From the sequence record OL451225.1: a stretch of 64,000 nucleotides of DNA, one strand, 5' to 3'. The position numbers and the translations under genes are program-made. Shown in pieces: positions 6,537-60,533 of this stretch. The stretch comes from Escherichia phage P896. Below the pieces are notes generated by a model. That model was not told the origin of the DNA, searched no databases, and saw only the letters and a program-made list of their open reading frames with translations. The stretch's first letter is position 1; the number at the start of each line of letters is the position of its first letter.

Positions 6537-6600
6537 AATGTTCTCCTCAGTAGTTGATATGGATAATATACTGCATTATCCCTTTGATGTAAACTGTTAT
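6537..6600 (-). promoter_or_regulatory. T4-type early promoter + conserved leader (family A)
   Basis: Minus strand GTTTACA...TATATTATCC...ACTACTGAGGAGAA-ATG. Confidence 0.6.
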
Positions 6601-6800
6601 TTTTCGTTAGAACGATAATCACATTCAAAAACTTTATTGTCATTAACAAAGGCTTTAACCAGCGCATTATTCACTTCTGCATACTGCACTGTAACCCATT
6701 CAATCATATTTTTGTCACTGACATCCAGCGCGGTTTCTTTGGTAAACATATTACCATTTTCAAACCAACCAATAAACAATACGTTCTCTAATTTATACAT
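6597..6800 (-). CDS. dmd: Dmd antitoxin (discriminator of mRNA degradation, anti-RnlA/LsoA)
   Basis: 67 aa; GWFENGNMFTKE...QYAEVNNALVKAF.ND.KV.E.D matches recalled T4 Dmd (61.5). Confidence 0.8.
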   Translation of the reverse strand: MYKLENVLFIGWFENGNMFTKETALDVSDKNMIEWVTVQYAEVNNALVKAFVNDNKVFECDYRSNEK

Positions 6801-7118
6801 TTAGATTTCCTCACAAAACGCCCAGGCAGCGTGATAAACTGTTGCGCCTTTAGTATCATTTAAACAAACCACGTCAACAGGTGCAATCACACGATAAAGA
6901 CGGGGTTCTCCTCCATATGAGCGAGCTGCTCTTCCTGCATAGATACGCGCCAAACCAATATCTTCAGTAAAAAACACACGCCCTAAATTTTTCTTACGCC
7001 CAACTTCTGACAGAACACCAGTTGCATCAGGAGGACAAAGCATATTTTGGATTCCAGCATTAGAGCTTGACCCATGATAATAAACTTTGTATTCTGCCTT
7101 GCAATCAATGGTTTTCAT
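6801..7118 (-). CDS. Small protein (105 aa) with diphtheria-toxin/PARP-like NAD-binding motif (putative ADP-ribosyltransferase-fold)
   Basis: VYYHGSSS motif (cf. SYHGT of DT, GYHGT of exotoxin A) followed by aromatic-x9-Y (FFTEDIGLARIY); preceded by family A promoter. Confidence 0.45.
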   Translation of the reverse strand: MKTIDCKAEYKVYYHGSSSNAGIQNMLCPPDATGVLSEVGRKKNLGRVFFTEDIGLARIYAGRAARSYGGEPRLYRVIAPVDVVCLNDTKGATVYHAAWAFCEEI

Positions 7119-7186
7119 TTTATTCTCCAGTAGTTGATAGGGTCATTATAACATAAGAAAAAGGGGCTGTAAGCCCCTTTGTTCAC
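7119..7186 (-). promoter_or_regulatory. Terminator hairpin + early promoter/leader (family A variant)
   Basis: GGGGCT-GTAA-AGCCCC hairpin then CAGTAGTTGATAGGG leader. Confidence 0.5.
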
Positions 7187-7489
7187 TTACGCCAACTCAT
7201 AGTTGTGCATAGTCAGACAACGAATTTTCCCAGTAGTTGGGTGCATAACAGTCACACTAATTGTGTAATCATCGCACACGTTAACAAAAGGTTCAGCGAT
7301 AACATATACTGCCCCGCCTGCAAGCAGATACTCACGAAGAGAGCTGCGAACAGATGAAGGTTGAACATCGCTTTTGAGCTTTATTAATTTACCAGTTTGA
7401 ATGCCTGATGCGATAAGAGCAGCACAGTTTTCATCACGGCGAGCGAATTGTCCAAAATAGTAACGATTCATATCGGTTTGATTAAACAT
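7187..7489 (-). CDS. Hypothetical protein (100 aa)
   Basis: ORF track; family B promoter upstream. Confidence 0.55.
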   Translation of the reverse strand: MFNQTDMNRYYFGQFARRDENCAALIASGIQTGKLIKLKSDVQPSSVRSSLREYLLAGGAVYVIAEPFVNVCDDYTISVTVMHPTTGKIRCLTMHNYELA

Positions 7490-7567
7490 ATGGTTTTCCT
7501 TTTAACAGTTGGTTTATTGTGTAACTCAGTATGGAATCATTATGTCCTAAGACAAGGGGCTTGTACA
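7490..7567 (-). promoter_or_regulatory. T4-type early promoter + conserved leader (family B)
   Basis: Minus strand GTGTACA...CATAATGATTCCATACTGAGTTACAC...ATG. Confidence 0.6.
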
Positions 7568-7816
7568 CTATTTTAATTCATTAATTAAATGAAAATCTTG
7601 TGCATTGAAAGTAATGAAAAAATAATCATTCCCTTCAACTGAAGCATGACAGGCAACACTACACCAGCGCCTTGCTCTGTTCAAGGAGCAATCCAAAATT
7701 TTAAAAGGCTTCAGACCAACAATGGCAGCTGTTCTTTTATTATGCTCACAAATATCAGCATACTTTTGGAGAGCTTCTTCAGATTTGAACTGGTAATGCA
7801 CATTAACTAATAACAT
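7568..7816 (-). CDS. Hypothetical protein (82 aa), Cys-containing
   Basis: ORF track; family A promoter upstream. Confidence 0.55.
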   Translation of the reverse strand: MLLVNVHYQFKSEEALQKYADICEHNKRTAAIVGLKPFKILDCSLNRARRWCSVACHASVEGNDYFFITFNAQDFHLINELK

Positions 7817-7906
7817 TTTATTATCCTCATCAGTAGTTGATGGGATAATAGTACACCCTTTTTATGAGGATGTAAACCCCTAAATGAAAAAAGGTCCACC
7901 CGAAGG
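7817..7906 (-). promoter_or_regulatory. Terminator hairpin (after gene 41) + early promoter/leader (family A)
   Basis: AAAGGTCCACCCGAAGGGTCTTT hairpin; GTTTACATCCTCAT...TATTATCCCATCAACTACTGATGAGGA. Confidence 0.65.
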
Positions 7907-7910
7907 GTCT

Positions 7911-11829: not shown

Positions 11830-11901
11830 TTTAATATCCTCAAGTTTGTAATCAGTAGTTGATGGAACAATCATACGGCAATCCTTTGCCGTTGTAAACA
11901 C
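11830..11901 (-). promoter_or_regulatory. T4-type early promoter + leader (family A variant)
   Basis: Minus GTTTACAACGG...CCATCAACTACTGATTACAAACTTGAGGATATTAAAATG. Confidence 0.5.
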
Positions 11902-17819: not shown

Positions 17820-18071
17820 TTAATCAAAGTATTCATATGCAAACCAGGCTTTGTGTCTGTTCGCGATTATTTTAACATATTCTTCACCGAAAGCGTTTTG
17901 TAAGTCACGTTCAGTAACAAGGTGTTCATCTTTCGAAAAGGTATTAACTAACACATACCGTTTAATTTCAGGGACAGCCAGTAAATGCTGCCCGGTTAAG
18001 AAGTCAGCCATAATAGCCTCTATTATAACATCCTTGTTTAAAGCATTATTCCATAACAGTGAATCGACCAA
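17820..18071 (-). CDS. Hypothetical protein (45.2-like position)
   Basis: ORF track; overlaps 3' end of gene 46, start may be internal. Confidence 0.4.
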   Translation of the reverse strand: MVDSLLWNNALNKDVIIEAIMADFLTGQHLLAVPEIKRYVLVNTFSKDEHLVTERDLQNAFGEEYVKIIANRHKAWFAYEYFD

Positions 18072-22177: not shown

Positions 22178-22700
22178 CCTCTTTATCTTTGGCGCTCTTA
22201 TCAGACCCTGGCGCTTTAACTAAGGAGGATTCGTACTGTGTCATTTTGTCGTAGATGTCCTGGATAAATGTTTCATCAGCCAGAGCCACCATATCGTCAT
22301 CACGTGAATCGTATACGTTATGGACGAAGTAGCTATATTTCTTTGCCATTTCTTTACGTTCTTTTTTGATACGCTGAACGAAAGCATTGAAGCAAGCCAT
22401 TGTTATGTAAGCATGTGGATTATCGTATTTTGTTTCGTCGAAGTTGTGAAGACCTTTTATTGCGGCCTCAATTCCGTCCGCTATCATTTCTTGCTTCCAG
22501 GATTGGGTATATCCGGAGAAGTTGAAACGTTTGCTAAGACCTTCGGCTATAAGCATAATCGCCAGACCAATAACATCGTTCTGGCGAATAATTTTGTTCG
22601 GGTCAGTGTTCGCATTCAGCTTCTGTTTCCACTCCGAAATAGCTTTCAAAAGCTCTTTATTATTTACATAGTTATTCTTGGTTAATTTAATTTCGTTCAT
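22143..22700 (-). CDS. 55: Late sigma factor gp55
   Basis: 185 aa as T4 gp55; sigma region-2-like segment; position upstream of 47. Confidence 0.88.
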
Positions 22701-22748
22701 ATCGCCTCACTTAGTATATGAATATTATATCATCCTTTATACAAAGCA

Positions 22749-23015
22749 TTAGCGAAGTAAACAGTAAGCCTGGAAGACCTTCTCCATAATTGCCTTAAAT
22801 TCATGGATGTCAATATAAGGGATAACCTCGGCATCACTAATGAATTCCATCAGACGGTCATGCTCGTTGCGGTATTGTCCTTCATTCAACATGCCGATAT
22901 GGGACTCCCACGAGCCATACCCTTCTACGTGTGGGAAGAATGTTATTTTCATGAATTCATCCACCCAAAACGTTCCCAGGTCCTGGATGGATATCATTGT
23001 ATGATTGATGTGCAT
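22749..23015 (-). CDS. Hypothetical protein (88 aa)
   Basis: ORF track (55.x region). Confidence 0.5.
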   Translation of the reverse strand: MHINHTMISIQDLGTFWVDEFMKITFFPHVEGYGSWESHIGMLNEGQYRNEHDRLMEFISDAEVIPYIDIHEFKAIMEKVFQAYCLLR

Positions 23016-24820: not shown

Positions 24821-24999
24821 AATTTAGGTCCTTTTGCAACTGTATTGAACAAGCTACGGTCACACACCATCAACGGAGCATCAGGCCATTTCAAAGGACG
24901 ATACCATACATCTTGGTCCGTCACTTTGGTTACTTGCACAGGATAGCCATTTACTGAATAATACTGGTCGGCTTTAATTTCTTTATCTTCAATAACCAT
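24817..24999 (-). CDS. Hypothetical protein (60 aa)
   Basis: Start at MVIEDKEIK; upstream extension in track is read-through of family A leader. Confidence 0.5.
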   Translation of the reverse strand: MVIEDKEIKADQYYSVNGYPVQVTKVTDQDVWYRPLKWPDAPLMVCDRSLFNTVAKGPKL

Positions 25000-25066
25000 T
25001 TTGTTTTCCTCATCAGTAGTTGATGGGATAATGATACACCGTTCAAAGGGGCTTGTACACCCCTTT
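25000..25066 (-). promoter_or_regulatory. T4-type early promoter + leader (family A)
   Basis: Minus TTGTACA...TATCATTATCCCATCAACTACTGATGAGGAAAAC. Confidence 0.6.
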
Positions 25067-25384
25067 TTAATCTTCAATTAAGTCCTGGTCATACCCCAGG
25101 GATATCAGTTTTGTTTTAAAGGCAGGAATATTTGTCATTTTTTCATCATTGACAAAAATCACTGGGTAACGAATGTTAAGGGTAGGATATCCAGCACGCT
25201 TAGCCAAAGACACGATTAATGGCCTGTCATAAGCGATTTCAGAGCCTTGTTTGTTAAGGACTGAATAGAATGTATAAGGAAGGTTTAAGGAGCCCAGAAG
25301 GCTCCTGACGTGCATACAACCTGGGCATCGACCGACTTCTTCGGGGATACCATAGATTTCAATCTTAGTCGAGTTTTGGTCCAC
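25067..25384 (-). CDS. nrdH: Glutaredoxin-like protein NrdH
   Basis: 105 aa; CPGC redox motif; position next to nrdG/nrdD. Confidence 0.7.
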   Translation of the reverse strand: MDQNSTKIEIYGIPEEVGRCPGCMHVRSLLGSLNLPYTFYSVLNKQGSEIAYDRPLIVSLAKRAGYPTLNIRYPVIFVNDEKMTNIPAFKTKLISLGYDQDLIED

Positions 25385-25664: not shown

Positions 25665-25900
25665 TCTTTCACCTTCAGCATTTTTGCAATGGTACTATGA
25701 ATAGTCTGGATTCTTTTGTTGAATTCAGAGCTTTCGAGGCCAGGATTGGTGCTTAACCAACCGATAATAACAAACAGCAAACCAAACGGGATAGCCAGAA
25801 TAAGCAGACAAACGATGAACAAAACAAGCGTTATGTTTGCCAGAATATCTGCTGTAGCATTACGAAATTTATTCATATTTACCCTTAATTGATTAACCAA
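25661..25900 (-). CDS. Small membrane protein (79 aa)
   Basis: ORF track; two hydrophobic helices. Confidence 0.5.
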   Translation of the reverse strand: MVNQLRVNMNKFRNATADILANITLVLFIVCLLILAIPFGLLFVIIGWLSTNPGLESSEFNKRIQTIHSTIAKMLKVKE

Positions 25901-25990
25901 GCATTGATAAACACTAAACTATACTGCGAATAAAATTCTGGACCAAAACGAAAAATCATATCATTTATAGTATCCATAATGTAATTCAAT

Positions 25991-26461
25991 TTAATCATGT
26001 TTCCACACCCCATCGGTATTTGACCAAAGTCGCTGATTATCCGACCCTCGCCACAGTTTTTTGGTCGGAAGATTTTTCTCATACTTCCCATCAATAATAA
26101 CATCAACATATTTAAGCATTTCTAGTTGTTTAATATCTTCAAACTTATATCCTGTCCACATCCAAATGCTTTTATTGGGATAAAGATTTTTAATAGTTTG
26201 AACCACAGAGTGAATAACATCTCGGTTATCAGGATAGAGAGGGTCTCCTCCGGTTATAGTTAATCCTTCTATATAATCATTATTCAAACATTCAATTAAT
26301 TGTTCTAGTGTTTTACCAGTAAATGGAACACCATTTCTAGCATTCCATGTTGATTTATTATAACACCCTTCGCATTTATGCAAACAACCTGTAACGAAAA
26401 GAACGACCCTGCATCCAGGGCCATTCACAAAATCGCAAGGATAAAATCTATCATAATTCAT
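25991..26461 (-). CDS. nrdG: Anaerobic ribonucleotide reductase activase NrdG (radical SAM)
   Basis: 156 aa as T4 NrdG; CxxxCxxC-type cluster (GCLHKCEGCYN). Confidence 0.9.
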   Translation of the reverse strand: MNYDRFYPCDFVNGPGCRVVLFVTGCLHKCEGCYNKSTWNARNGVPFTGKTLEQLIECLNNDYIEGLTITGGDPLYPDNRDVIHSVVQTIKNLYPNKSIWMWTGYKFEDIKQLEMLKYVDVIIDGKYEKNLPTKKLWRGSDNQRLWSNTDGVWKHD

Positions 26462-28275
26462 TGGTGTTTAACCCTATGCATGATTTCTTTATTTTTGCCG
26501 AGATTAAATCCGCGTTCGTTCGGATTTCCCAAATAACCACAAGTTCTTCTTATTGTGTTCATCTTTTTAGGGTCAGTTTCTCCACAAATAGAACAAACAA
26601 ATCCGTTTTCAGTAGGAGTCATTTCATGGGTACTTCCACATGTAAAACATTTATCTACTGGCATATTAACACCAAAATAATCTAAATGTTGTGCAGCATA
26701 ATCCCACACAGCCTCAAGACCTTTTAGGTTATTTTTCATATCAGGAAGTTCAACATAAGAAATGTGACCGCCTGTCGCAATGAAATGATACGGTGCTTCG
26801 CGAGAAATCTTTTCAAACGGAGTAATATTTTCTTCTACTGAAACATGGAAACTATTAGTGTACCAGCCTTTATCAGTAACATCTTTTACACTTCCATATT
26901 TTTCAGTATCAAGTTTACAGAAGCGATAGCACAGGTTTTCAGCAGGAGTAGAATACAAGCTAAAAGCAAAACCGGTTCTTTCGGTCCACTGCTTAAGACG
27001 AGCATTCATTTTAGTTAAAATTTCTTGCCCAATATCACGACCGACAAGAATATTCAATTCGTGAATACCAATGTATCCCAAAGACACTGAACTTCTACCG
27101 TTTTTAAATAACTCAATTATATCATCATCGGGTTTAAGACGAACCCCGAATGCACCTTCTTGGTAAAGAATAGGAGCAACAGTCGCTTTAACTCCTTTTA
27201 AGGAATTAATTCTACACATCAAAGCTTCAAAACACAAATCCATTCGCTCATTGAACAATTCAGTAAATTTCTGTTCATTGAACTGTGTTCCAATATAAGA
27301 ATCTAACGCAATACGAGGAAGATTCAGTGTTACAACGCCAAGATTATTACGCCCATCAAGAATTTCATTACCAGCCGAATCTTTCCATACGCTCAAGAAA
27401 CTACGGCAACCCATCGGAGAAACAGGAACTGAAGAACCGGTAATAGCTTTATTATTCTTAACCGAAATAATGTCAGGATACATTCTTTTGCTTGCACACT
27501 CTAAAGCAAGCTGCTTAATATCATAGTTCGGGTCGTCTTTATAAAGATTAACACCTTCTTCAACGAACATAACAAGTTTAGGGAAAATAGGAGTTATCCC
27601 ATCACGACCAAGACCTTTAATACGATTTTTCAGAATTGCTTTCTGAATCATTCGTTCGGTCCAGTCAGTTCCGGTACCAAATGTAATTGTCACAAAAGGA
27701 GTCTGACCATTTGAGCTAAAGAGAGTATTTACTTCATATTCATAAGCTTGGAATGCGTCGTATACGTCTTTTTCTGTTTTAGATTGTGCATAATTCAACG
27801 CATCAGTGATTTGCCATTTTTCCGCGTCCTCAATATGTTTCGCATAGGTACGTTTAACATAAGGAGAAAGTACTTTATCTACATTCGCAAAAGTCGTTCC
27901 GCCATATTGATGGGAAGCAACCTGTGCAGTAATTTGTGCCATAATTGCAGTAGCAACACTGATTGATTTAGGAGTTTCAATCTGTGCATTACCGAGCTTA
28001 AACCCGTTCTCAAGCATTCCTTTTAAATCTACTAAACAGCAATTAGTAAATGGAAGAGCAGGGGAATAATCAATATCATGGAAATGAATAATTCCACTTT
28101 CATGTGCTTTCATAATAAAAGACGCGACCATATTTTTGGCAATGTGTTTAGATACAATACCAGCCATAAGGTCCCGTTGAGTTGGAAAAACACGAGAATC
28201 TTTATTAGCATTCTCGTTTAAAAGGTCTTTATTAGTTTTATGAATCAATCCTTCAATTTCGTTTTCAATTGTCAT
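26458..28275 (-). CDS. nrdD: Anaerobic ribonucleoside-triphosphate reductase NrdD
   Basis: 605 aa as T4 NrdD; C-terminal glycyl-radical motif RTCGYLG and Cys4 Zn site; contiguous ORF (no intron). Confidence 0.93.
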   Translation of the reverse strand: MTIENEIEGLIHKTNKDLLNENANKDSRVFPTQRDLMAGIVSKHIAKNMVASFIMKAHESGIIHFHDIDYSPALPFTNCCLVDLKGMLENGFKLGNAQIETPKSISVATAIMAQITAQVASHQYGGTTFANVDKVLSPYVKRTYAKHIEDAEKWQITDALNYAQSKTEKDVYDAFQAYEYEVNTLFSSNGQTPFVTITFGTGTDWTERMIQKAILKNRIKGLGRDGITPIFPKLVMFVEEGVNLYKDDPNYDIKQLALECASKRMYPDIISVKNNKAITGSSVPVSPMGCRSFLSVWKDSAGNEILDGRNNLGVVTLNLPRIALDSYIGTQFNEQKFTELFNERMDLCFEALMCRINSLKGVKATVAPILYQEGAFGVRLKPDDDIIELFKNGRSSVSLGYIGIHELNILVGRDIGQEILTKMNARLKQWTERTGFAFSLYSTPAENLCYRFCKLDTEKYGSVKDVTDKGWYTNSFHVSVEENITPFEKISREAPYHFIATGGHISYVELPDMKNNLKGLEAVWDYAAQHLDYFGVNMPVDKCFTCGSTHEMTPTENGFVCSICGETDPKKMNTIRRTCGYLGNPNERGFNLGKNKEIMHRVKHQ

Positions 28276-28745
28276 TTTAAACTCTTTCTAAGCTGCTTCT
28301 TAAATGAAGCCATTAATTGTGTTTTTGTGTCAGATTCATTATAATTCATACCGTTCAAAAGCATTTCCCGAATCATTTCTTCTTTCCCCAGGCGACCGAA
28401 CTCTTTGGCTTTGTCTGCCACAAAATTAGGGTGAATATTGTTTTCGGTATAATCAGATTTCAGATAGACAAGCAAACTCTCTAACCATTCCAGGTAGTCA
28501 ACATCGCGACCTTTTAGACCCGAACGGCTGAACTTATGCTTCATTTGTCCTTCTGTTCCATTGCACAGATTGCATAGTAACCCGCGAACCTTACCGGCTT
28601 TTGGTCCGTTCAATTCGTGGTCATGGTCAAGATGGTTGGCCTGAACATCAGAGTCCAAATCACGGTGGCAAATTGGACACTTACCAGCTTGTGCATCATA
28701 AAGTTTTTGTTTTTCTTCTTTGTATAATTTGCCAGTCAACAACAT
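28272..28745 (-). CDS. 49: Endonuclease VII (Holliday junction resolvase) gp49
   Basis: 157 aa; near-identical to recalled T4 gp49 (MLLTGKLYKEEKQK...HLDHDHELNGPKAGKVRGLLCNLCN). Confidence 0.95.
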   Translation of the reverse strand: MLLTGKLYKEEKQKLYDAQAGKCPICHRDLDSDVQANHLDHDHELNGPKAGKVRGLLCNLCNGTEGQMKHKFSRSGLKGRDVDYLEWLESLLVYLKSDYTENNIHPNFVADKAKEFGRLGKEEMIREMLLNGMNYNESDTKTQLMASFKKQLRKSLK

Positions 28746-32264: not shown

Positions 32265-32322
32265 AGTGTTCTCCTCATAAAGTAGGAATTCATTATACTC
32301 CCTCCATCCTTGGAAGTAAACA

Positions 32323-34269: not shown

Positions 34270-34332
34270 AATAATTTCCTCAATAGATTAATCAAAGGTC
34301 AGAACCATTATACCATCCTTGGTATAAAGCGT

Positions 34333-34857: not shown

Positions 34858-34925
34858 TTTATTCTCCAGTATTTGGTAACTCAGTATGGGAACATTATAC
34901 GTCTATCCCCATACTATGTACACAT
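34858..34925 (-). promoter_or_regulatory. T4-type early promoter + leader (family B)
   Basis: Minus ...TGTACATAGTATGGGGATAGACGTATAATGTTCCCATACTGAGTTACCAAATACTGGAGAAT. Confidence 0.6.
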
Positions 34926-35441: not shown

Positions 35442-35550
35442 TTTATTCTCCGTTTGTTTATTTGGTAACTCAGTATGGAATCATTATGCCTCATGACCAT
35501 CTGGTTGTACATTACTTTTTAAAATAAAAAAGGACCCCGAAGGGTCCTTA
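35442..35550 (-). promoter_or_regulatory. Terminator hairpin + early promoter/leader (family B)
   Basis: AGGACC-CCGAAG-GGTCCT hairpin (35525-35545) then TGTACA...CATAATGATTCCATACTGAGTTACC. Confidence 0.6.
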
Positions 35551-38786: not shown

Positions 38787-38885
38787 TGTGTTCTCCTCAG
38801 TAGTTGATGGGATAATAGTACACCCTTTTTATGGTGATGTAAACCCCTAAATGAAAAAAGGTCCACCCGAAGGCAGACCTTTTGA
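38787..38885 (-). promoter_or_regulatory. Terminator hairpin + early promoter/leader (family A)
   Basis: AAAAGGTC-[12 nt]-GACCTTTT hairpin; GTTTACATCACCAT...TATTATCCCATCAACTACTGAGGAGAA. Confidence 0.65.
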
Positions 38886-40490: not shown

Positions 40491-40676
40491 TTATTCTGTA
40501 ATACTTTCCAGATAATTTTCTAAATCGTCTGAAGCCTTATTAAGGGCTTCTAGCGCTTTATAATAGTCTTCACGGGAGTAATATTCTGTATGAAGTTCTT
40601 CGTCGTATTCGCTTTTAGCATCAACAACAGTTTCAATCATATCCAGAATTTTATTTTTCTGTTCTTTAGTAATCAT
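40491..40676 (-). CDS. Hypothetical acidic protein (61 aa)
   Basis: ORF track. Confidence 0.45.
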   Translation of the reverse strand: MITKEQKNKILDMIETVVDAKSEYDEELHTEYYSREDYYKALEALNKASDDLENYLESITE

Positions 40677-40684
40677 AATATACC

Positions 40685-40870
40685 TTAAAGAGTATTCACA
40701 TAAGCAATTAATTCGTTTTCTTTCTCATCAAACCGATTAGCAAATTCTTCCAGATGTTCGGCATCTATCGGGCCGTATTCATCATAAAAGGCGTTTGCTT
40801 CTGTATGCTCATCCAAAAGCTCATGGATAAGCTCAAATAATCTACTTTTCTGACTAATGCTTAAACTCAT
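40685..40870 (-). CDS. Hypothetical acidic protein (61 aa)
   Basis: ORF track. Confidence 0.45.
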   Translation of the reverse strand: MSLSISQKSRLFELIHELLDEHTEANAFYDEYGPIDAEHLEEFANRFDEKENELIAYVNTL

Positions 40871-42644: not shown

Positions 42645-43103
42645 TTAGATATAAATCACTTTTGTGCTAATTTTTCCTTCCAGACGATTAGAGTTAACAA
42701 ACGCCATACGACAACACATGGTCGGAGACTTCCCAGGAAGAGCTGGGTTAACTGTCATTCCTAACCATAGGTTCTTGTCTGTGATTTCCAGACGAAGTGG
42801 ACGATAGTTCACATTCGGGTCAATTTGTGCTTCAACTTCCGGGAGTGGTTTCATCTCCAGGAATTCAACGATTTCTTTTACATGTGGTGTGATTTTTCCA
42901 AACAAATCAAAAACATATTGTTCATCAATTTCACGTTGGATTGCACGGTCCAACAGGTGTGGACTGTACTTAATGAAGAATGCCTCAAGGCCTGCTTCTT
43001 TACAAGCCTTGTTGATAGCATTATTAATTTTGAGGAACTCCGTTTCAAAAATGCGACGAAGTTTATTGCGGCGAATGTAAACACTTGAATCGATAGTAGT
43101 CAT
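42645..43103 (-). CDS. regB: Endoribonuclease RegB
   Basis: Start at MTTIDSS; IRRNKLRR.FE.EF...HLLDRAIQREIDE...YRP.RLEITD.NLWLG matches recalled T4 RegB. Confidence 0.88.
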   Translation of the reverse strand: MTTIDSSVYIRRNKLRRIFETEFLKINNAINKACKEAGLEAFFIKYSPHLLDRAIQREIDEQYVFDLFGKITPHVKEIVEFLEMKPLPEVEAQIDPNVNYRPLRLEITDKNLWLGMTVNPALPGKSPTMCCRMAFVNSNRLEGKISTKVIYI

Positions 43104-43159
43104 GATTATCTCCTTTTGTTTGATGGGATAATCATAACTCATTTCAATCTGCTTGTACA

Positions 43160-43160
<1 letters not shown>
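43104..43160 (-). promoter_or_regulatory. T4-type early promoter + leader (family A variant) for regB
   Basis: Minus GTAGTGTACAAGCAG...TATGATTATCCCATCAAACAAAAGGAGATAATCATG. Confidence 0.55.
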
Positions 43161-45234: not shown

Positions 45235-45291
45235 TTTATTCTCTCTAAGTTGATGGGATAATTATGCACTATCCCATCAAAAAGTAAACAG
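45235..45291 (-). promoter_or_regulatory. T4-type early promoter + leader (family A variant)
   Basis: Minus GTTTACTTTTTGATGGGATAGTGCATAATTATCCCATCAACTTAGAGAGAATAAAATG. Confidence 0.55.
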
Positions 45292-46020: not shown

Positions 46021-46079
46021 GTTTGTTCTCCTATGTTTGTAGGAGAACATTATATCACACGTATCGTGGAAGTAAACTG

Positions 46080-48867: not shown

Positions 48868-49104
48868 TCAGTATTCTTCATCATATTCAAAGTCTTCATC
48901 AAACTCGGGTTCCAGAGAAATTTCTTCTTCCGGGTGGAATTCACAAGGGAAGTATTCCACTTCACCACAATCGGCGTCATAGGACTGGAAATCAATTTGG
49001 ATTACGGTTTCGGATACAACAATAACTTCAGCAACCAAGTCACCTGCAATTTCCATTCCAACTTTAACATCTTTAGCTTTGATAGTATTCATTTTATTCT
49101 CCAA
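48868..49104 (-). CDS. Hypothetical acidic protein (78 aa)
   Basis: ORF track; family B promoter upstream. Confidence 0.5.
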   Translation of the reverse strand: MENKMNTIKAKDVKVGMEIAGDLVAEVIVVSETVIQIDFQSYDADCGEVEYFPCEFHPEEEISLEPEFDEDFEYDEEY

Positions 49105-49158
49105 TTTGGTAACTCAGTATGGAATCATTATGCACTGACTCCATACTGATGTACACAC
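49105..49158 (-). promoter_or_regulatory. T4-type early promoter + leader (family B)
   Basis: Minus GTGTACATCAGTATGGAGTCAGTGCATAATGATTCCATACTGAGTTACCAAATTGGAGAAT. Confidence 0.6.
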
Positions 49159-50118
49159 TTATTTTGTGAAAGGACGAATTAAATGTTGGTTAGCCTTAAA
49201 GCGTTTAACATAGTCTTCGCGACCCAGGGTGTTGTACATATTAACCACTTCCTGGTAATGTTCCCAGGCATACTCGCGGAACCATCCAGAAGTAATGGAG
49301 GTACAGACTTTTTCCAGCGCAATATGGAAGCTCACAGATGGAGAGATATTGAACTCATTAGGAACCTGCGAACGCTCCAGAGCGAGCACACATGCTTCTT
49401 CATAAACCCCTGCCAGTTTAATAATCTCAGGGAGTGCTTCAAATTTTTCACGCGAGGTCATGACTTCTGAATCATCCTTCATATAAAACTTATATGCAGG
49501 CTTATCAGCAAGCGCCACAGCCTCGTGGATGGAGTCATGGTCAAGGGTGTAGATTGTATCATTAAAGAAAGTTTTCTTGCCCACGTCTAGTTTAGGGTGA
49601 CTGTATGACAGTGTTTCTGCCTGACGCTGCAGCATGATTTTCTGCAGTTCATCATTAAGAACAATACCCTTATTGCGAAGGTAATTAATATGACTCATGG
49701 TCTTCAGGAAGAATGGATTGTTCTTCAGGTAACGATGAGACAATTTAATCGCCAGACAAATATCAGGCGTCGCCCAATAGAAACCTGTAAGACGGTCTTT
49801 CTTAATATGATTTTCAGCGTATTTCAAGAGACGATAACTTGAGGTGAAATCTTCGTCTTGAAGCTCACCAGTAATTTCTCGTACGTTGGTCAGGGCACGG
49901 ACAATATAAGCTTCAAAATAGGTTTCTTTGCCATTGTACATACATTTAAAAGCTTGGACATCAGGGTTATCCACAGGAACATGAGCACCGAACATACGTG
50001 CTTTAAAGTGGTTCCAAGAACCCTGGTCAGCGATAAAGTCCCAATCAGAGTTTTCAATTTTCTGACTTTCAATCAGACCAGCGTTATGTAATGCACGAGA
50101 ACCAATAACTAACATCAT
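49159..50118 (-). CDS. Hypothetical protein (319 aa)
   Basis: Long ORF, no motif recognised. Confidence 0.65.
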   Translation of the reverse strand: MMLVIGSRALHNAGLIESQKIENSDWDFIADQGSWNHFKARMFGAHVPVDNPDVQAFKCMYNGKETYFEAYIVRALTNVREITGELQDEDFTSSYRLLKYAENHIKKDRLTGFYWATPDICLAIKLSHRYLKNNPFFLKTMSHINYLRNKGIVLNDELQKIMLQRQAETLSYSHPKLDVGKKTFFNDTIYTLDHDSIHEAVALADKPAYKFYMKDDSEVMTSREKFEALPEIIKLAGVYEEACVLALERSQVPNEFNISPSVSFHIALEKVCTSITSGWFREYAWEHYQEVVNMYNTLGREDYVKRFKANQHLIRPFTK

Positions 50119-50510: not shown

Positions 50511-50574
50511 TTTTATTCTCCTGTTCTGATAACGTGATTGTCATCAGTTGATAGGAGTATAGTAACACAGTTTT

Positions 50575-50919
50575 TTAGACTTGTATACTGCTTCTACAAT
50601 ATTCTAAAAATAATTTATCGTTGTCTACCGTATCCCAACGACGCCAAGATGGATTCCAGACCAGAGCGTTGTCACCGCAATCATTGAGCTTAAAATGGTC
50701 GTAGTACATAGCTATATGTCTGGTTTCGTCACCAGAGAACCCCAGTATAGGCTCACCGTGAGTATGATACATATGATGATGCATTGAGAGGTCGCATTTG
50801 TAAAACATCTCACGTTTACCACGAACGAACAAGAAGGCTTGCCCATTCATATAGAATTCTTTATCTGTTTTCAAAAGATATTTGAATACCGAATCTTTAT
50901 GCATAATTCCTCCTACCAC
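50575..50919 (-). CDS. His-rich protein (114 aa), possible metal-binding
   Basis: HHHMYHTHGEPILGFSGD cluster. Confidence 0.5.
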   Translation of the reverse strand: MVGGIMHKDSVFKYLLKTDKEFYMNGQAFLFVRGKREMFYKCDLSMHHHMYHTHGEPILGFSGDETRHIAMYYDHFKLNDCGDNALVWNPSWRRWDTVDNDKLFLEYCRSSIQV

Positions 50920-50934: not shown

Positions 50935-51162
50935 TTATTTTCCTAACGAAATGCGAGTAGGTTTTTTACCGAAATATTCTTCATAGGAACCATCTAAACG
51001 ACCCGCTTTAGACCGACAATACGAATCATACTTTTTGTAATAAGCCAACTCGGTATTGTAACGTGGATGTCTATCAGCCATAATAATACTTAACGGCCAA
51101 CCTTTGGCGTAATCACGAAGACCATTTATTTTACGAATATATCTTTTCTTTAATTTTAACAT
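50935..51162 (-). CDS. Hypothetical basic protein (75 aa)
   Basis: ORF track. Confidence 0.45.
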   Translation of the reverse strand: MLKLKKRYIRKINGLRDYAKGWPLSIIMADRHPRYNTELAYYKKYDSYCRSKAGRLDGSYEEYFGKKPTRISLGK

Positions 51163-51389
51163 GAACTTGGGTACCAGATTTTACCATCGGCACTAGCAAC
51201 GAAGGTGCGACCAGCTTCTTCCCCATAACAAGAGCTGTTCAACCAGTCTTCAAGACGGACTTCGCCGTCATAATCATCAAGCTCAACACCAAAATCTTGA
51301 GCAGAAGCCATATCTTTTACTTTCTTATACAGTGCAGCCAGTTCAAGGGCGGCTTTTTCTAATTCAGCACGTTCAACAGCAGTAGTCAT
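51156..51389 (-). CDS. Hypothetical protein (77 aa)
   Basis: ORF track. Confidence 0.45.
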   Translation of the reverse strand: MTTAVERAELEKAALELAALYKKVKDMASAQDFGVELDDYDGEVRLEDWLNSSCYGEEAGRTFVASADGKIWYPSSC

Positions 51390-51398
51390 TTTATCACC

Positions 51399-51626
51399 TT
51401 AGCAAGACATAGAGGAGTTAAACCAGAAACCTTTACCATCTGGGATACCGTAATCACCACGAATCCAGTCATACTCTTCGTATTCTGGACAACCCGCAGG
51501 AATATATCGTTGAAGACTGTCAGCATACACATGAAAGTATTCACCAGTTTTATCGGCCAGTTGTTCACCTTCACAGATTAGTGCACGGATTTGGTCTTCA
51601 ATTTCTTTAACAGTTTTAGCAGTCAT
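51399..51626 (-). CDS. Small protein, W-x-S-S-x-x-C C-terminal family member 1 (75 aa)
   Basis: C-terminus GFWFNSSMSC. Confidence 0.55.
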   Translation of the reverse strand: MTAKTVKEIEDQIRALICEGEQLADKTGEYFHVYADSLQRYIPAGCPEYEEYDWIRGDYGIPDGKGFWFNSSMSC

Positions 51627-51635
51627 TTTATTTCC

Positions 51636-51833
51636 TTAGCATTCATAAGAGGAGGACACCCAGGAGCCACCCGTAATTGTAATACAGCCATTGTAAATCG
51701 TGATATGACGGTCCAGATGGTTTTCACCTTCGATATAGATATCAGCTTCTTCACGCTCTTCTTTACAAATCTGGATAACGTTTTCAATAGCTGCCGCGGC
51801 AGTACGGATTGCACAATCTAGTTCACGAGACAT
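51636..51833 (-). CDS. Small protein, W-V-S-S-S-x-x-C family member 2 (65 aa)
   Basis: C-terminus GGSWVSSSYEC. Confidence 0.55.
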   Translation of the reverse strand: MSRELDCAIRTAAAAIENVIQICKEEREEADIYIEGENHLDRHITIYNGCITITGGSWVSSSYEC

Positions 51834-51842
51834 AATAATTCC

Positions 51843-52124
51843 TTAACATTCAGCAGAAGAGGACACCCAACCACCATTTTCCAGGTCAGTTGTATAGTCA
51901 TGAGTATTAACAATAGCCCATTCAGGATGACCATGTTCTTCCCAATGAGCAAGGTCAGCTTTCAGGGCACCAGGAGAATAATAGTCACCGCCCATACCGC
52001 GAGCAGGGTATATATTAAAATGAGTCTCATATTTGTCTGCAATTTCCTCGGCACGACGAATAGCTTTATGGATGTCATTTACTGCGTTAGCCAGTTCTTT
52101 ATTTTTACGGTAATCATTCATCAT
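51843..52124 (-). CDS. Small protein, W-V-S-S-S-x-x-C family member 3 (93 aa)
   Basis: C-terminus NGGWVSSSAEC. Confidence 0.55.
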   Translation of the reverse strand: MMNDYRKNKELANAVNDIHKAIRRAEEIADKYETHFNIYPARGMGGDYYSPGALKADLAHWEEHGHPEWAIVNTHDYTTDLENGGWVSSSAEC

Positions 52125-55100: not shown

Positions 55101-55181
55101 TTTATTCTCCAGTGTTTTATTTGGTAACTCAGTATGGAATCATTATGCCTTAAAGCAGGGGGCTTGTATACCCCTTTTTAA
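55101..55181 (-). promoter_or_regulatory. T4-type early promoter + leader (family B)
   Basis: Minus GGTATACAAGCCCCCTGCTTTAAGGCATAATGATTCCATACTGAGTTACCAAATAAAACACTGGAGAAT. Confidence 0.6.
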
Positions 55182-55625
55182 TTAAATTTCAAATTCTTTG
55201 CGGAAGTTGGAAGCATAAGACTGAACTGATGCTTTGTTGAATCCAAACTCACGCACAATCATATCAATAACAGCTCTGCGAGCAGCACCATTAGACATAT
55301 TAACAGTTTTGAACATATCATAGCATAAATCTTTGTTGCTCATACCGGAGCGTTTAGGTGCCTTACGTTCAGCTTTTGGTTCAGCTTTAGGAGTAGGTTT
55401 AACTTCTGGTTTAACCTGTCCATCATTCAGACCTTTAAAAATTTTACCTGCCAGAGTTGCCAGTTTAGCAGCTTCGCCACGAGTGATACCAAATACTGCC
55501 GGGTTAAATGAAATACCTTCAGCTGTCAGACGTTTGAAGAACATACGTGCTGCGGATTGTGCTTCAGCTTCAGAAGAGTTGTTTAATGCCAGTTTAACAT
55601 ACTTAACCAGTTTTGAAGTTTTCAT
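55182..55625 (-). CDS. Hypothetical protein (147 aa), shared C-terminal domain with 56078..56503
   Basis: C-terminus NGAARRAVIDMIVREFGFNKASVQSYASNFRKEFEI. Confidence 0.55.
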   Translation of the reverse strand: MKTSKLVKYVKLALNNSSEAEAQSAARMFFKRLTAEGISFNPAVFGITRGEAAKLATLAGKIFKGLNDGQVKPEVKPTPKAEPKAERKAPKRSGMSNKDLCYDMFKTVNMSNGAARRAVIDMIVREFGFNKASVQSYASNFRKEFEI

Positions 55626-55698
55626 TTTATTATCCCGTTTGTTTATTTGTTAACTCAGTATGGAATCATTATGCCTTAGTTAAATTCCAAAGTACATA
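55626..55698 (-). promoter_or_regulatory. T4-type early promoter + leader (family B)
   Basis: Minus ...CATAATGATTCCATACTGAGTTAACAAATAAACAAACGGGAT. Confidence 0.55.
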
Positions 55699-55995: not shown

Positions 55996-56077
55996 TTTAT
56001 TCTCCAGTGTTTTATTTGTTAACTCAGTATGGGATAATTATACACTATCCCACCTGGAAGTAAAACACTTTTCTCAA
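55996..56077 (-). promoter_or_regulatory. T4-type early promoter + leader (family B/A hybrid)
   Basis: Minus GTGTTTTACTTCCAGGTGGGATAGTGTATAATTATCCCATACTGAGTTAACAAATAAAACACTGGAGAAT. Confidence 0.55.
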
Positions 56078-56503
56078 TTATTTTTGAGCTTTGCGGAAGT
56101 TGGATGCATATGACTGAACAACAGTCTTTTTGATATCATGGGTGGTAACCAGAACATCAATCAGAGCGCGACGAGCTGCATTATCATTCATATCAATTTC
56201 TGCAAATGCCTGGAAGCAAATGTCACGAGCGTTACCAGATTTGGACTGGATTTTTTCTTCTTTAACTTCTTCAATTGGGAATTCAATCATTTCAGCTTGG
56301 ATTAATTCAATGATAGATTCTTTTGACTGTTTGGTGTTTACCTTCAGTTCAGAATTAAGGGACTTGGCGATGGCAACAATCTGGGTTGAAGTCAGATGAA
56401 TAAGTGCATCTTCACGAATGCAGATTTCACATACTTCGTCAGCAACCATTTTGTTAGTGATGCGGGTAACAGAGAATGCAGAGGTCAGGGTCAGGAAGTT
56501 CAT
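56078..56503 (-). CDS. Hypothetical protein (141 aa), shared C-terminal domain with 55182..55625
   Basis: C-terminus NDNAARRALIDVLVTTHDIKKTVVQSYASNFRKAQK. Confidence 0.55.
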   Translation of the reverse strand: MNFLTLTSAFSVTRITNKMVADEVCEICIREDALIHLTSTQIVAIAKSLNSELKVNTKQSKESIIELIQAEMIEFPIEEVKEEKIQSKSGNARDICFQAFAEIDMNDNAARRALIDVLVTTHDIKKTVVQSYASNFRKAQK

Positions 56504-56600
56504 TTTATTTCTCCAAAGTTTTGTTTTGATTCAGTGTGTAACTCAGTATGGAATCATTATGCACCCGGTCAATCCGGATGTACACTACTTTTTGAAGAAA
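56504..56600 (-). promoter_or_regulatory. T4-type early promoter + leader (family B)
   Basis: Minus GTAGTGTACATCCGGATTGACCGGGTGCATAATGATTCCATACTGAGTTACACACTGAATC. Confidence 0.6.
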
Positions 56601-56623
56601 ATTTCAAATTTATTCGGGGTATA

Positions 56624-56660
56624 AAAAAACCCCAACCTTTCGGAAGGGGCCATACCTTGT
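56624..56660 (-). terminator. Rho-independent terminator
   Basis: Minus GGCCCCTTCCGAAAGGTTGGGGTTTTTTT (interrupted stem + T7 run). Confidence 0.6.
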
Positions 56661-57549: not shown

Positions 57550-57564
57550 AATATCCTCAGTAAT

Positions 57565-57641
57565 TGGTCGGGGTGGTGGGATTCTAACCCACAACCTACG
57601 GTTTAGAAGACCGTTGCTCTATACAATTAAGCTACACCCCG
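57565..57641 (-). tRNA. tRNA-Arg (anticodon TCT), CCA encoded
   Basis: Cloverleaf read by eye: acceptor CGGGGTG/CACCCCG, anticodon arm ACGGT-CTTCTAA-ACCGT, T arm GTGGG-TTAGAAT-CCCAC. Confidence 0.7.
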
Positions 57642-57643
57642 GG

Positions 57644-57717
57644 TGGCCCCATCCGGACTTGAACCGGAAACCTGCCAGTTATGAGCCGGATGCTCTAACC
57701 AATTGAGCTACAGGGCC
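57644..57717 (-). tRNA. tRNA with CAT anticodon (Ile-lysidine type as in T4, or Met)
   Basis: Acceptor GGCCCTG/TGGGGCC, D arm GCTC-AATTGGTTA-GAGC, anticodon loop CTCATAA, T arm TCCGG-TTCAAGT-CCGGA; directly abuts tRNA-Arg. Confidence 0.8.
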
Positions 57718-57722
57718 TAAAA

Positions 57723-58590: not shown

Positions 58591-58592
58591 AA

Positions 58593-59160: not shown

Positions 59161-59217
59161 TTTATTCTCCTCAGTAGTTGATGGGATAATCATACTACAG
59201 TTATCCCATCACGTACA
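59161..59217 (-). promoter_or_regulatory. T4-type early promoter + leader (family A)
   Basis: Minus GTGTACGTGATGGGATAACTGTAGTATGATTATCCCATCAACTACTGAGGAGAATAAAATG. Confidence 0.6.
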
Positions 59218-59496
59218 CTAAATTTTTGTATATTGTCCAGCTTTAACTTTTTTCAGTTCACGAGGGCTTACCGCGTAAGTGAATGGAGCATTCCAGGAAG
59301 AACTGACTTTGTAACCTTTAGTCAACATCATTGCTGAAACTTTCTTGTTATCAGGACCGTTTTCGCCTTTAACAAGAAACAACTCAAATGCGCCCCCATC
59401 AACCGGTTTGGCCTTAACCATCAGATGTCCTTTCAGGTCTTCCAGCATATCCGGGTGACTAATTGATTCGTTAATAAATTCTTGATAAGTTTTCAT
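59218..59496 (-). CDS. Internal head protein (CTS), 92 aa
   Basis: N-terminus MKTYQEFINES. Confidence 0.65.
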   Translation of the reverse strand: MKTYQEFINESISHPDMLEDLKGHLMVKAKPVDGGAFELFLVKGENGPDNKKVSAMMLTKGYKVSSSWNAPFTYAVSPRELKKVKAGQYTKI

Positions 59497-59551
59497 TAGT
59501 AGCTCCAGTAGTTGATGGGATAATTATACTGCAACTATCCCATCGTGTACA
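59497..59551 (-). promoter_or_regulatory. T4-type early promoter + leader (family A)
   Basis: Minus ATGTACACGATGGGATAGTTGCAGTATAATTATCCCATCAACTACTGGAGCTACTAATG. Confidence 0.6.
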
Positions 59552-59851
59552 TTACATTTTTGAACCACGAATTACACCATAAGCGGCGAAGTCGTCAGAA
59601 ATATCTTTAGGTGAGTTCTTACCAGTTTCAATGAAGGCAATGCTTGACTTCTGACTAAAAGAGGTAATTTTGTTATAGTTGGAGTCAAGGAAGGTATAAC
59701 CATTTTTGCGTAGCTGGTCAAAGTCTTCAGCGTCGCCTTTGCCTTTGAAGTCAACCCATTTGTAGGTGTTTTTCTTCTGAAGACCCAGAGGCCAGGTTTT
59801 TGCTTCTGCCAGGTAATTGTTTTCTACCAAAAATTCATGAAAAGTTTGCAT
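59552..59851 (-). CDS. Internal-protein-like (variant CTS MQTFHEFLVEN), 99 aa
   Basis: Shares DAEDFDQLRKNGYTF motif with 45292..45555. Confidence 0.55.
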   Translation of the reverse strand: MQTFHEFLVENNYLAEAKTWPLGLQKKNTYKWVDFKGKGDAEDFDQLRKNGYTFLDSNYNKITSFSQKSSIAFIETGKNSPKDISDDFAAYGVIRGSKM

Positions 59852-59859
59852 TTGAAATC

Positions 59860-60132
59860 CTATTTTAGATAAATTGCATATTTTTTATAACCAGCTGTCT
59901 CATGACGGAGACCCTTGTCATTGGCAAAACGCTCAATGTTATTAATTTGGTTCTGGTCAAGTTCTGAAATGTCAAACGCGAAAAAGTTGCGTTTGTTACC
60001 AATTGTTATATGGTCAGTCAAGTCAATGCTATACAGGTGATTGATATTGTCAATCATAGCTTTGACTGCTTTACTAATTTTTACTTCTTCATTCAGTTGG
60101 GACTCGTTGAAAAGTTCATTGAAAGTTTTCAT
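59860..60132 (-). CDS. Internal-protein-like (CTS MKTFNELFNES), 90 aa
   Basis: CTS-like N-terminus. Confidence 0.55.
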   Translation of the reverse strand: MKTFNELFNESQLNEEVKISKAVKAMIDNINHLYSIDLTDHITIGNKRNFFAFDISELDQNQINNIERFANDKGLRHETAGYKKYAIYLK

Positions 60133-60140
60133 AAGAAACC

Positions 60141-60473
60141 TTATTTATATAGTTTTGCCAGTTCTTTACGTCCGCGAGCAGACATAATAAATTGTTCATC
60201 GCCAATTTTAAAATAAGCCATACCACCGTCAACAGCGATACCAATTTCTTTAGTACCTTCTTTGCCTTTCCACTTGCCACCAGATTTCAGAACAGCTTCA
60301 ACTGCAGCTTTGGAATATTTGGACGTTTGAAAACGTTCATTACCAATCTGAAAGAAAACACCATCTGCATTTTTGGTTAAACCAAATTTCAGAGAGCCTT
60401 CACTATCATCAATTGATTTGGTCTCATTGATGGCGGATTCGGCTAAAAACTCGTTGTAAGTTTTGATGTTCAT
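60141..60473 (-). CDS. Internal protein I-like (CTS MNIKTYNEFLAES), ~110 aa
   Basis: CTS-like N-terminus; adjacent to 57B as T4 ipI. Confidence 0.6.
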   Translation of the reverse strand: MNIKTYNEFLAESAINETKSIDDSEGSLKFGLTKNADGVFFQIGNERFQTSKYSKAAVEAVLKSGGKWKGKEGTKEIGIAVDGGMAYFKIGDEQFIMSARGRKELAKLYK

Positions 60474-60533
60474 ATTAACTCCGTTTGTTCGTTGGTGTAG
60501 GAACATAATACTGCGCCTACACTCATTTGTACA
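60474..60533 (-). promoter_or_regulatory. T4-type early promoter + leader (variant)
   Basis: Minus GTAGTGTACAAATGAGTGTAGGCGCAGTATTATGTTCCTACACC. Confidence 0.45.

Follow-up and report, generated by a model that had tools for sequence, protein, structure and literature searches.

The stretch of Escherichia phage P896 analyzed here (sequence record OL451225.1; 64,000 nucleotides (nt), taken at its full length and hereafter called the window) carries a repeated set of early-promoter and leader cassettes in the spaces between its genes, and these cassettes are the subject of this report. Essentially all genes of the window lie on the minus strand. A 6-kb piece is 95% identical to Escherichia phage 212, 94.6% to P479, 91.5% to VR20 and 88% to VR7; P479 and VR7 are classified as Gaprivervirus (Straboviridae, Tevenvirinae), and the source of the window is, by this likeness, evidently a Gaprivervirus-like T4-type phage. 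Set against the VR7 annotation, the gene order runs from the modA region through 41, 43, regA, 55, nrdC, tk and regB, then through internal-protein (IP) genes, e and the tRNAs, to gene 4; in T4-type genomes this stretch is classically the prereplicative (early/middle) region.

Cassette anatomy, stem-loops and predicted RegB sites

A model's earlier reading of the bare letters (the original prediction) had proposed at least 19 minus-strand sites at which a T4 early-type promoter is joined to one of two leaders, A and B. The observation of repeated early promoter-leader cassettes is real. A 27-nt pattern for family A found four matches at three or fewer mismatches and a 29-nt pattern for family B found seven, all on the minus strand, while dinucleotide-preserving shuffles gave none for either pattern; both motifs are thus where they had been placed, on that strand only. 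A fuller count, made with 15-16-nt cores of the two leaders and by inspection of every intergenic gap, gave 23 early-type promoters on the minus strand of the window. Family A, with the leader form TATCCCATCAACTACTGAGGAG…ATG, is found at 11 sites, comprising eight core matches (ATGs at 6536, 7118, 7816, 11829, 24999, 38786, 59160 and 59496) and three weaker copies (43103, 45234 and 50510). Family B, with the form GATTCCATACTGAGTTACCAAAT…GGAGAATAAAATG, is found at eight (ATGs at 7489, 34857, 35441, 49092, 55100, 55625, 55995 and 56503), with a further B-like copy at 60473, and three early-type promoters have other leaders (ATGs at 54286, 46020 and 32264). The A- and B-type sites total 20, so the proposed minimum of 19 holds. 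An independent, blind repeat finder ranked the same cassettes first by size among the direct-repeat families of the window (D1 to D7). All 23 sites fall between a minus-strand stop codon and an ATG bearing a Shine-Dalgarno sequence (SD), the intergenic placement of the elements known as promoter-early stem-loops (PeSLs).

Every one of the 23 promoters has GTTTAC, GTGTAC or a close variant, a spacer of 17-18 nt and a TAnnAT-type hexamer, with A-runs ahead of the -35 element. In promoter numbering GTTTAC/GTGTAC occupies -36 to -31, and a C-rich discriminator ends in CCA, the A of which is the predicted +1; the base 7 nt downstream of the -10 element is A in 20 of 23 cases. In family A the -10 element is TACTAT, TATGAT or TATAAT, immediately 5' of TATCCC, and not the TATTAT initially taken for it; the T4 early-type -35 proposed at the outset is present throughout. 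The predicted 5' untranslated regions (UTRs) are 20-25 nt long in family A, except for two longer variants, and span 28-46 nt in family B; described at the level of families, they end in a GGAG SD. Leader B looks like a leader A that has lost CAACT and gained a C/A-rich insert (GUUACCAAAUAAACAAAC) before the SD, and up to 29 nt of the block running from the -10 element into the leader are identical between B copies.

The phage enzyme RegB cuts GGAG in translation initiation regions of early mRNAs (PMC3014915), and its strong sites, used together with ribosomal protein S1, follow GG*AGRAYARAA, a consensus from Durand et al. 2006 that Uzan & Miller 2010 summarize (PMC3014915). The sites are listed below with the regB gene; open reading frames (ORFs) are given in amino acids (aa), and folding energies with their z-scores.

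6537-6594, minus strand: A-type, ahead of the sp (spackle) orthologue; 6594-6589 as -35 (GTTTAC), -10 TATATT, predicted +1 at 6558, SD GAGGAG; T4 early promoter with A-like leader at the orthologous sp
7119-7181, minus strand: A-type; hairpin AAAGGGGCTTACAGCCCCTTT with -35 GCTTAC in the loop (-13.2 kcal/mol, z -3.1); SD GGAGAATAAAA, a perfect RegB consensus
7490-7568, minus strand: B-type, ahead of a 100-aa ORF; GGGG/CCCC hairpin at the -35 reduced to its 3' half
7817-7910, minus strand: A-type, after gene 41 and before an 82-aa ORF; CCTTCGGG terminator truncated; matches the mobD.5 cassette (38787-38883) at all but 3 positions from hairpin loop through leader (D7, 96% over 81 nt); cassette and ORF absent from VR7
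11830-11899, minus strand: A-type, upstream of imm; spacer stem-loop ACGGCAA/TTGCCGT; long leader variant …ACTGATTACAAACTTGAGGAT
25000-25068, minus strand: A-type, upstream of the 55.6 orthologue; hairpin AAAAAGGGGTGTACAAGCCCCTTT with the -35 in the loop (-11.6 kcal/mol, z -3.5)
32265-32321, minus strand: early-type promoter ahead of the nrdC.4 orthologue, its leader neither A nor B; SD GAGGAG
34858-34923, minus strand: B-type, upstream of nrdC.8; inverted repeat AGTATGGG/CCCATACT around the -10; SD a perfect RegB consensus
35442-35549, minus strand: B-type; terminator-like hairpin AAGGACCCTTCGGGGTCCTTTTTT ahead (-13.8/-14.2 kcal/mol, z -2.9); SD a perfect RegB consensus
38787-38883, minus strand: A-type, upstream of mobD.5; full CCTTCGGG terminator hairpin (-18.4 kcal/mol, z -3.5)
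42645-43103, minus strand: regB gene, 152 aa; Pfam PF10715 REGB_T4, E 3.8e-72, full length
43104-43160, minus strand: degenerate A-type, upstream of regB; GGAG SD
45235-45289, minus strand: A-type, upstream of an IP-like gene; 11-bp inverted repeat TTGATGGGATA/TATCCCATCAA around the -10
46021-46077, minus strand: early-type promoter with a different leader, upstream of denV; SD GGAGAACAAAC, positions 1-10 of the RegB consensus
49093-49156, minus strand: B-type, upstream of a 74-aa ORF; 10-bp inverted repeat TCAGTATGGA/TCCATACTGA around the -10; SD a perfect RegB consensus
50511-50589, minus strand: weak A-type (CCTATCAACTGATGA…); 42-nt leader; SD GGAGAATAAAA
54287-54358, minus strand: early-type promoter, upstream of the e.6 orthologue; inverted repeat GGGAACAT/ATGTTCCC around the -10 TAGTAT
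55101-55179, minus strand: B-type; -35 GTATAC in the loop of AAAAAGGGG…GCCCCC; SD a perfect RegB consensus
55626-55697, minus strand: B-type, upstream of a 147-aa ORF; right-hand partner in a B-B recombination (loss of a 98-aa gene in 212 and P479)
55996-56065, minus strand: B-type, upstream of a 98-aa ORF; left-hand partner in the same recombination; inverted repeat TGGGATA/TATCCCA around the -10
56504-56640, minus strand: B-type, upstream of a 141-aa ORF; 46-nt leader; GGGG…CCCC hairpin ahead
59161-59218, minus strand: A-type, upstream of the trna.4 orthologue; 10-bp inverted repeat TGATGGGATA/TATCCCATCA around the -10; SD a perfect RegB consensus; chimeric relative to two VR7 A cassettes
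59497-59552, minus strand: A-type, upstream of an IP-like gene (MKTYQEF…); 9-bp inverted repeat GATGGGATA/TATCCCATC around the -10
60474-60534, minus strand: B-like (GTTCCTACACCAACGAACAAACGGAG); inverted repeat GTGTAGG/CCTACAC around the -10; true ATG at 60473

Stem-loops of the PeSL kind are present, at positions that match the published PeSL subclasses, of which there are five, with the stem-loop placed upstream, at the -35, within the spacer, at the -10 or downstream of the -10. The most frequent arrangement, seen at about ten sites (eight with 6-11 contiguous bp), is an inverted repeat bracketing the -10 element, whose 3' arm is the start of the "leader", a feature that had been overlooked. 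The arms covary: combining each spacer with the downstream region of a different promoter shortens the stems (permutation p = 0.004-0.009), and T4 has a counterpart at trna.4, where ATAGGGT and ACCCTAT form the brackets. A GGGG…CCCC hairpin holds the -35 element in its loop at three sites (24999, 55100 and 7118), with one half hairpin besides; the stem lies in the spacer at two (11829 and 56503); and about four sites have no clear stem-loop. The CCTTCGGG terminator (CCGAAG on the plus strand) stands upstream of three of the 23 early promoters (38786, 35441 and, as a truncated copy, 7816), and the statement that many are preceded by it was therefore too strong. Folding z-scores of the best stem-loops range from -2.3 to -3.5, and the structures may have a role within the cassettes.

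The 3' block GGAGAATAAAA, likewise overlooked before, is an exact fit to GGAGRAYARAA. This consensus occurs eight times in the window against 0.31 expected, a number reached by no shuffle, and all eight occurrences are on the minus strand, coincide with the SD of a cassette gene and end at the A of its ATG. GGAG within 18 nt upstream is found at 15 of 22 cassette genes and at 12 of 118 other genes (Fisher p = 3e-8). The window also holds an intact regB, preceded by a degenerate A cassette whose SD is GGAG; regB genes themselves are known to have a conserved GGAG SD that RegB cleaves (PMC3014915). In these respects the window resembles the RegB/S1 sites of T4, and the cassette messages would be produced in one burst, after which RegB would inactivate them, cleavage being predicted here. 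As a corollary, cassette SDs predict which early messages should be RegB targets, and the window offers a clean example, in a further T4-like genus, of an early promoter, a leader and a RegB site packaged as one repeated module.

Distribution and age of the two leader families

PeSLs are known from RB49/phi1 (Arbiol et al. 2010, PMC2839356) and from PST/T4 and nt-1/KVP40 (Comeau et al. 2014, PMC4122927). The cassettes of the window share with them an intergenic A/T-rich tract, sigma70-like -35 and -10 elements, a stem-loop, an SD and an ATG; stem-loops, often of the GGGG…CCCC form, that are placed upstream, across the -35, within the spacer or about the -10; and crossovers that fall between the -10 and the ATG or in a hairpin loop and remove or add single ORFs. 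They differ in their Gaprivervirus-like setting, in their two discrete leader families and in showing no excess of insertion or deletion (indel) boundaries across three pairwise comparisons, and their activity is predicted. In anatomy, stem-loop classes and chimeric-cassette junctions the cassettes are PeSLs at the level of sequence, a kind of element already known. An analogy to integron gene cassettes and the "morons" of lambdoid phages has been drawn for such elements (PMC2839356): here too single ORFs are arrayed and bring or receive their own expression signals, but the window elements have neither an integrase nor an attC-type site and depend on general homologous recombination between short repeats.

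The promoters are equally those of the T4 early class, with its extended "UP/-35/TGn/-10" architecture (Hinton 2010, PMC2988021; Nolan et al. 2006, PMC1524935). Like them, they combine GTTTAC (-36 to -31) and a TAnnAT -10 with an A-rich tract ahead of the promoter and C-rich sequence from -3 to -1; they serve the same genes (sp, trna.4, mobD.5, regB, nrdC.8, denV and others), and leader A is nearly identical to that of T4. On the other hand, many window copies have G at -33 (GTGTAC), as in RB49, RB43 and Aeh1 (PMC1524935), TGn is mostly missing, and the family B leader is absent from T4. The combination of GTTTAC, a TAnnnT -10 and orthologous downstream genes is shared with T4, JS98 and a Mosigvirus.

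Leader A occurs in the T4 early region itself, as TACTAT-acaacTATCAACTACTGAGGAGAATAAAATG-type leaders at trna.4 (GTTTAC-N18-TACTAT-taccCTATCAACTACTGAGGAGAATAAAATG), e.8, nrdC.10, nrdC.8, imm.1, sp and motB.2, those after trna.4 being close variants, with a further close variant at ipII. T4 homologues stand behind 11 of the 23 cassettes, ten of them clear orthologues and the eleventh the 82-aa ORF (7816), which matches T4 weakly, and T4 has an early promoter at the same place for nearly all 11. About half of the cassettes are at T4-orthologous positions: trna.4, sp, mobD.5 (with its hairpin), regB, denV, e.6, nrdC.4, nrdC.8 and 55.6. At mobD.5, T4 and the window have in common the CCTTCGGG terminator followed by TTTTTTCATTT…GGTTTAC. 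BLAST with an A cassette returned 634 phage records, with T4, T2 and T4-like phages of Klebsiella among them, and leader A is common to four Tevenvirinae genera, including T4, JS98 and a Mosigvirus, at orthologous genes. The orthologous positions and the spread of leader A over four genera argue that most cassettes are old, vertically kept regulatory sites, and family A is, on this comparative evidence, the ancestral T-even leader, an old regulatory sequence largely kept in place.

Family B is far more restricted. A B cassette was found in only 38 phage records, with about 9-12 copies per full-length genome of the VR7/SP18 group; Morganella phage MP1 has two weak copies. An exact 16-mer scan of IMG/VR found B in multiple copies only in three genomes of about 170 kb, the remaining single hits being at chance number. 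The orthologous gene nrdC.8 has an A-type leader in T4, JS98 (Dhakavirus) and a Mosigvirus and a B leader in the window, a case of cassette replacement at an orthologous locus. Family B is accordingly best described as a Gaprivervirus-specific derivative that appears to have arisen within the genus and to have been copied to at least eight loci, mostly before accessory ORFs. An ancient leader A can in this way be separated from a young leader B, which expanded inside a single genus and took the place of A at an orthologous gene. ORFs without a T4 homologue follow seven of eight B cassettes and five of 11 A cassettes; the proposed near-exclusive association with non-core ORFs therefore describes mainly family B and not the set as a whole, given the 11 of 23 downstream genes with T4 homologues. 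No paper describing A and B leader families in VR7-like phages was found, and a search on the motif strings gave no relevant paper, in a literature search that did not extend to figures or older subscription papers.

The 141-aa (56078-56503) and 147-aa (55182-55625) ORFs behind B cassettes are paralogues, with 42% identity over the C-terminal 73 aa and the C-terminal motif VQSYASNFRK in both; neither has a Pfam match. Origin of the B array as a duplicated two-gene unit was considered and rejected: the 141- and 147-aa ORFs are paralogous, but the 98- and 101-aa ORFs are not. Among cassette-driven accessory ORFs, Pfam gave nothing besides RegB and one zinc-finger match below threshold.

Recombination at cassettes and competing interpretations

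Alignment of the window with VR7, 212 and P479, in which every gap of at least 60 nt was listed, yielded about 30 distinct events. Three indels relative to these phages have their junctions inside cassettes (55993/55672, 59155/59227 and 7871/7549) and document crossovers within these elements at base-pair resolution. In one, the unit B-ORF98-B (56065-55626) is present in the window and VR7 and replaced in 212 and P479 by a single chimeric B cassette, in which the left-copy promoter is joined within CCATACTGAGTTAMCAAATAAA to the right-copy SD. In another, the A-ORF-A arrangement of VR7 corresponds to one chimeric A cassette in the window and 212, with an overlap of 73 nt. The third concerns the A cassette and ORF82 (7910-7568) absent from VR7: its left junction, in the loop of CCTTCGGG, leaves a truncated chimeric hairpin at 7887-7910, and its right junction is at the -35 of the next B cassette. 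Recombination between two PeSLs that leaves a chimera is thus found among these phages. The neighboring B leaders 55995 and 55625, moreover, have GTTAAC in common where both VR7 copies have GTTACC, a variant that suggests gene conversion, of which it is the expected outcome.

At five more events (49163, 46031, 56687, 35555 and 6612), one of the two boundaries lies in a cassette or beside it. The insertions at 35555 and 6612 were rejected as cassette-mediated, since their far junctions have no cassette homology. The remaining events involve homing-endonuclease genes, microhomology at overlapping stop and start codons, paralogous small genes, or the repeated N-terminus of IP genes, a 33-nt coding repeat (MKTYQEFITES) that flanks one VR7-specific IP gene. 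Over the three pairwise comparisons (the window with VR7, 212 and P479), indel boundaries fall at 10 of 22 cassette junctions and at 39 of 117 other junctions (p = 0.33), or 11 of 26 other junctions having a spacer of at least 40 nt (p = 1.0), without enrichment in either case. Crossovers do occur in cassettes, which are not favored over other sites in this sample. The IP genes deserve separate mention. Shuffling of the IP locus in T-even phages was reportedly described by Repoila and co-workers in 1994 (cited in PMC4122927), and the IP-like genes of the window (59496, 45234, 45555 and 60473) stand behind cassettes, whereas the repeat at which the VR7-specific IP gene was exchanged is coding sequence and not a promoter cassette.

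Two side observations concern the same alignments. The interval 48868-49163 is a hot spot with three alternative states: a B leader with the 74-aa ORF in the window (and, judged by cassette identity, in SP18), a gene of about 650 nt annotated as a restriction endonuclease in VR7 and 212, and in P479 only a promoter, its -10 enclosed by GTGGGAC/GTCCCAC. Related phages also carry homing-endonuclease genes (mobB-like, segF-like and others) at 62581, 63409-63454, 18002-18048 and 2616-2900 that in the window are missing or replaced; several of the largest indels are of this type and unrelated to cassettes.

We consider it likely that these elements are T-even-type early-gene expression cassettes of the PeSL class, which secondarily act as substrates for recombination. 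Each would combine a strong sigma70-type early promoter, an A-rich tract, usually a stem-loop, a short conserved 5' UTR and a GGAG SD. Host RNA polymerase would fire the promoters immediately after infection, the short unstructured leader would permit efficient translation, and RegB with S1 would then cut within GGAG(AAUAAAA) and switch the messages off; the cassettes, as repeats of 30-95 bp scattered through a highly recombinogenic genome, would now and then act as crossover points, deleting, inserting or swapping single-gene modules as a side effect. Several points weigh against this account. The extended -10 TGn (-15/-14) is absent from most copies, which have GTG, AGG or CAG directly before the hexamer (a scan of 46-64 kb found TG before the second hexamer at only two early promoters), and the SDs of seven of the 23 cassettes, in departure from the T4 RegB sites, are without GGAG (GGAU, GGAA, GGGA or others). 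The predicted probability that GGAG is unpaired does not differ between cassette (0.50) and non-cassette (0.44) GGAG sites. Promoters, +1 positions and RegB cuts are, for this phage, predictions, and conservation of the +1 to +15 block (ATCAACTACTGA or ATACTGAGTTAC) is not obviously required for either promoter strength or RegB targeting. That block and the inverted repeat at the -10 could instead constitute a cis-acting operator or structure-dependent switch, for example in early-promoter shut-off, a mechanism "not completely understood" according to a review (PMC3014915). Conservation of the block across four genera, at paralogous as well as orthologous sites, and covariation of the repeat arms would fit such a function. 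However, no candidate factor is known, several early promoters of the window are without both features, the block differs between families A and B, and nothing here separates a switch from selection for promoter escape or leader function, or from recombination-driven homogenization; we regard an operator as quite improbable. Its narrower form, in which the -6 to +15 block (TATCCCATCAACTACTGA or GATTCCATACTGAGTTAC) and the covarying repeat make up a dedicated T-even early-promoter shut-off switch that family B has re-tuned in its own lineage, seems to us more doubtful still.

An alternative in the spirit of the original prediction would make the cassettes primarily mobile, with integron-like boundaries and active excision and reinsertion as mini-circles, and the main driver of gene shuffling in the lineage. 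Mini-circles have been shown experimentally for RB49 and phi1 (PMC2839356), and the window has much that could be read in these terms: the three indels with junctions inside cassettes, the near-copy of the mobD.5 cassette (7817-7910) at a new locus that VR7 lacks, the presence of family B at eight or more loci and its replacement of A at nrdC.8, the derived A-for-C change common to two neighboring B leaders, and the arrays of cassette-ORF units at 56640-54795 and 7910-6537. Yet indel boundaries are not enriched at cassettes, most of the roughly 30 indels trace to homing endonucleases, stop/start microhomology or the IP N-terminal coding repeat, about half of the cassettes are T4-orthologous in position, and a dedicated recombinase is neither known nor seen. 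Primary mobility is on balance unlikely, and the term "mobile" says too much of elements of which about half hold T4-orthologous positions and whose leader A extends over four genera. Of the PeSL-like interpretation originally offered, the anatomy survives; the mobility, the frequency of CCGAAG hairpins and the near-exclusive non-core association are unsupported or too strongly put; shuffling of genes through cassettes is real in the three crossovers, without being concentrated at cassette junctions. It is also scarcely conceivable that the repeats are coding sequence and give the downstream proteins a conserved N-terminal extension (IIPSTTEEN…). In three A copies an open frame does continue 5' of the ATG, and the mechanical ORF list runs on to upstream TTG or GTG codons, but a strong SD and an ATG at canonical distance follow the block in every copy, annotated VR7 and T4 orthologues start at the ATG after the leader (55.6, for example, has 183 nt in each), the block is situated 3' of a -10 element, and B copies and differently spaced A copies are in other frames. 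On these grounds a coding origin was rejected, and the IIPSTT(D/E)E(D/N) extensions are, as had been supposed, artifacts of in-frame read-through of the leader.

Several starts are corrected as a result. The upstream extensions at 24999, 7816 and 38786 are artifacts; the start placed at 49104, behind the cassette given as 49105, moves to the real ATG at 49092; and the promoter at 60533 serves the ATG at 60473 rather than that at 60506. The 121-aa start at 60506 (VR7ORF156c annotation) overlaps the -10 of its own promoter, whereas the GGAG SD and ATG at 60473 give a 110-aa protein that begins MNIKTYNEF, resembles the IP N-terminus and agrees with the shorter length annotated in 212.

Middle promoters, tRNAs and neighboring genes

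Middle-type promoters, with a MotA-box-like TGCTTTA about 12 nt upstream of TATAAT, were noted at 34270-34330, 22700-22750, 18011-18045, 3419-3480 and 2268-2339. The last of these has further features:

2268-2339, minus strand: A-like leader TATCTCAACTACAGAGGAGAA behind a middle-type promoter at 2267 (MotA-box-like TGCTTTTAA, then TATAAT); CCTTCGGG terminator hairpin (-14.4 kcal/mol, z -2.8)

This combination of a middle promoter, an A-like leader and the CCTTCGGG terminator is like the "PmSL" described for nt-1.

Two tRNA genes, Arg-TCT and Met-CAT, lie within 57565-57717 and were the only Rfam matches in the window, none falling on the cassettes. An A-like leader fragment, CCGACCAATTACTGAGGATATTATG, stands directly after tRNA-Arg and ahead of a 79-aa ORF, with no recognizable promoter between. 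A 2.4-kb segment (25876-28276) that comprises a 605-aa ORF, a class III ribonucleotide reductase according to the 212 and P479 annotations, and an adjacent 156-aa ORF is present in the window, 212 and P479 and absent from VR7. Two adjacent 61-aa ORFs (40491-40870) show a weak likeness (18 of 61 residues identical); the second in order of reading (40676-40491) is missing from VR7, 212 and P479. A tandem row of four small genes (93, 65, 75 and 77 aa) at 51156-52124 has 9-nt gaps (TAAGGA…ATG) between its members, whose products have in common a C-terminal motif W-x-SS-x(0-2)-C; one 165-nt unit is missing in 212 and P479, with a junction overlap of 42 nt. Finally, two adjacent genes (ATGs at 5444 and 5805) have their start codons within a 45-nt direct repeat (5442-5486 and 5803-5847, 96% identical), each copy of which also takes in the 3' end of the preceding gene; the two downstream proteins are dissimilar.

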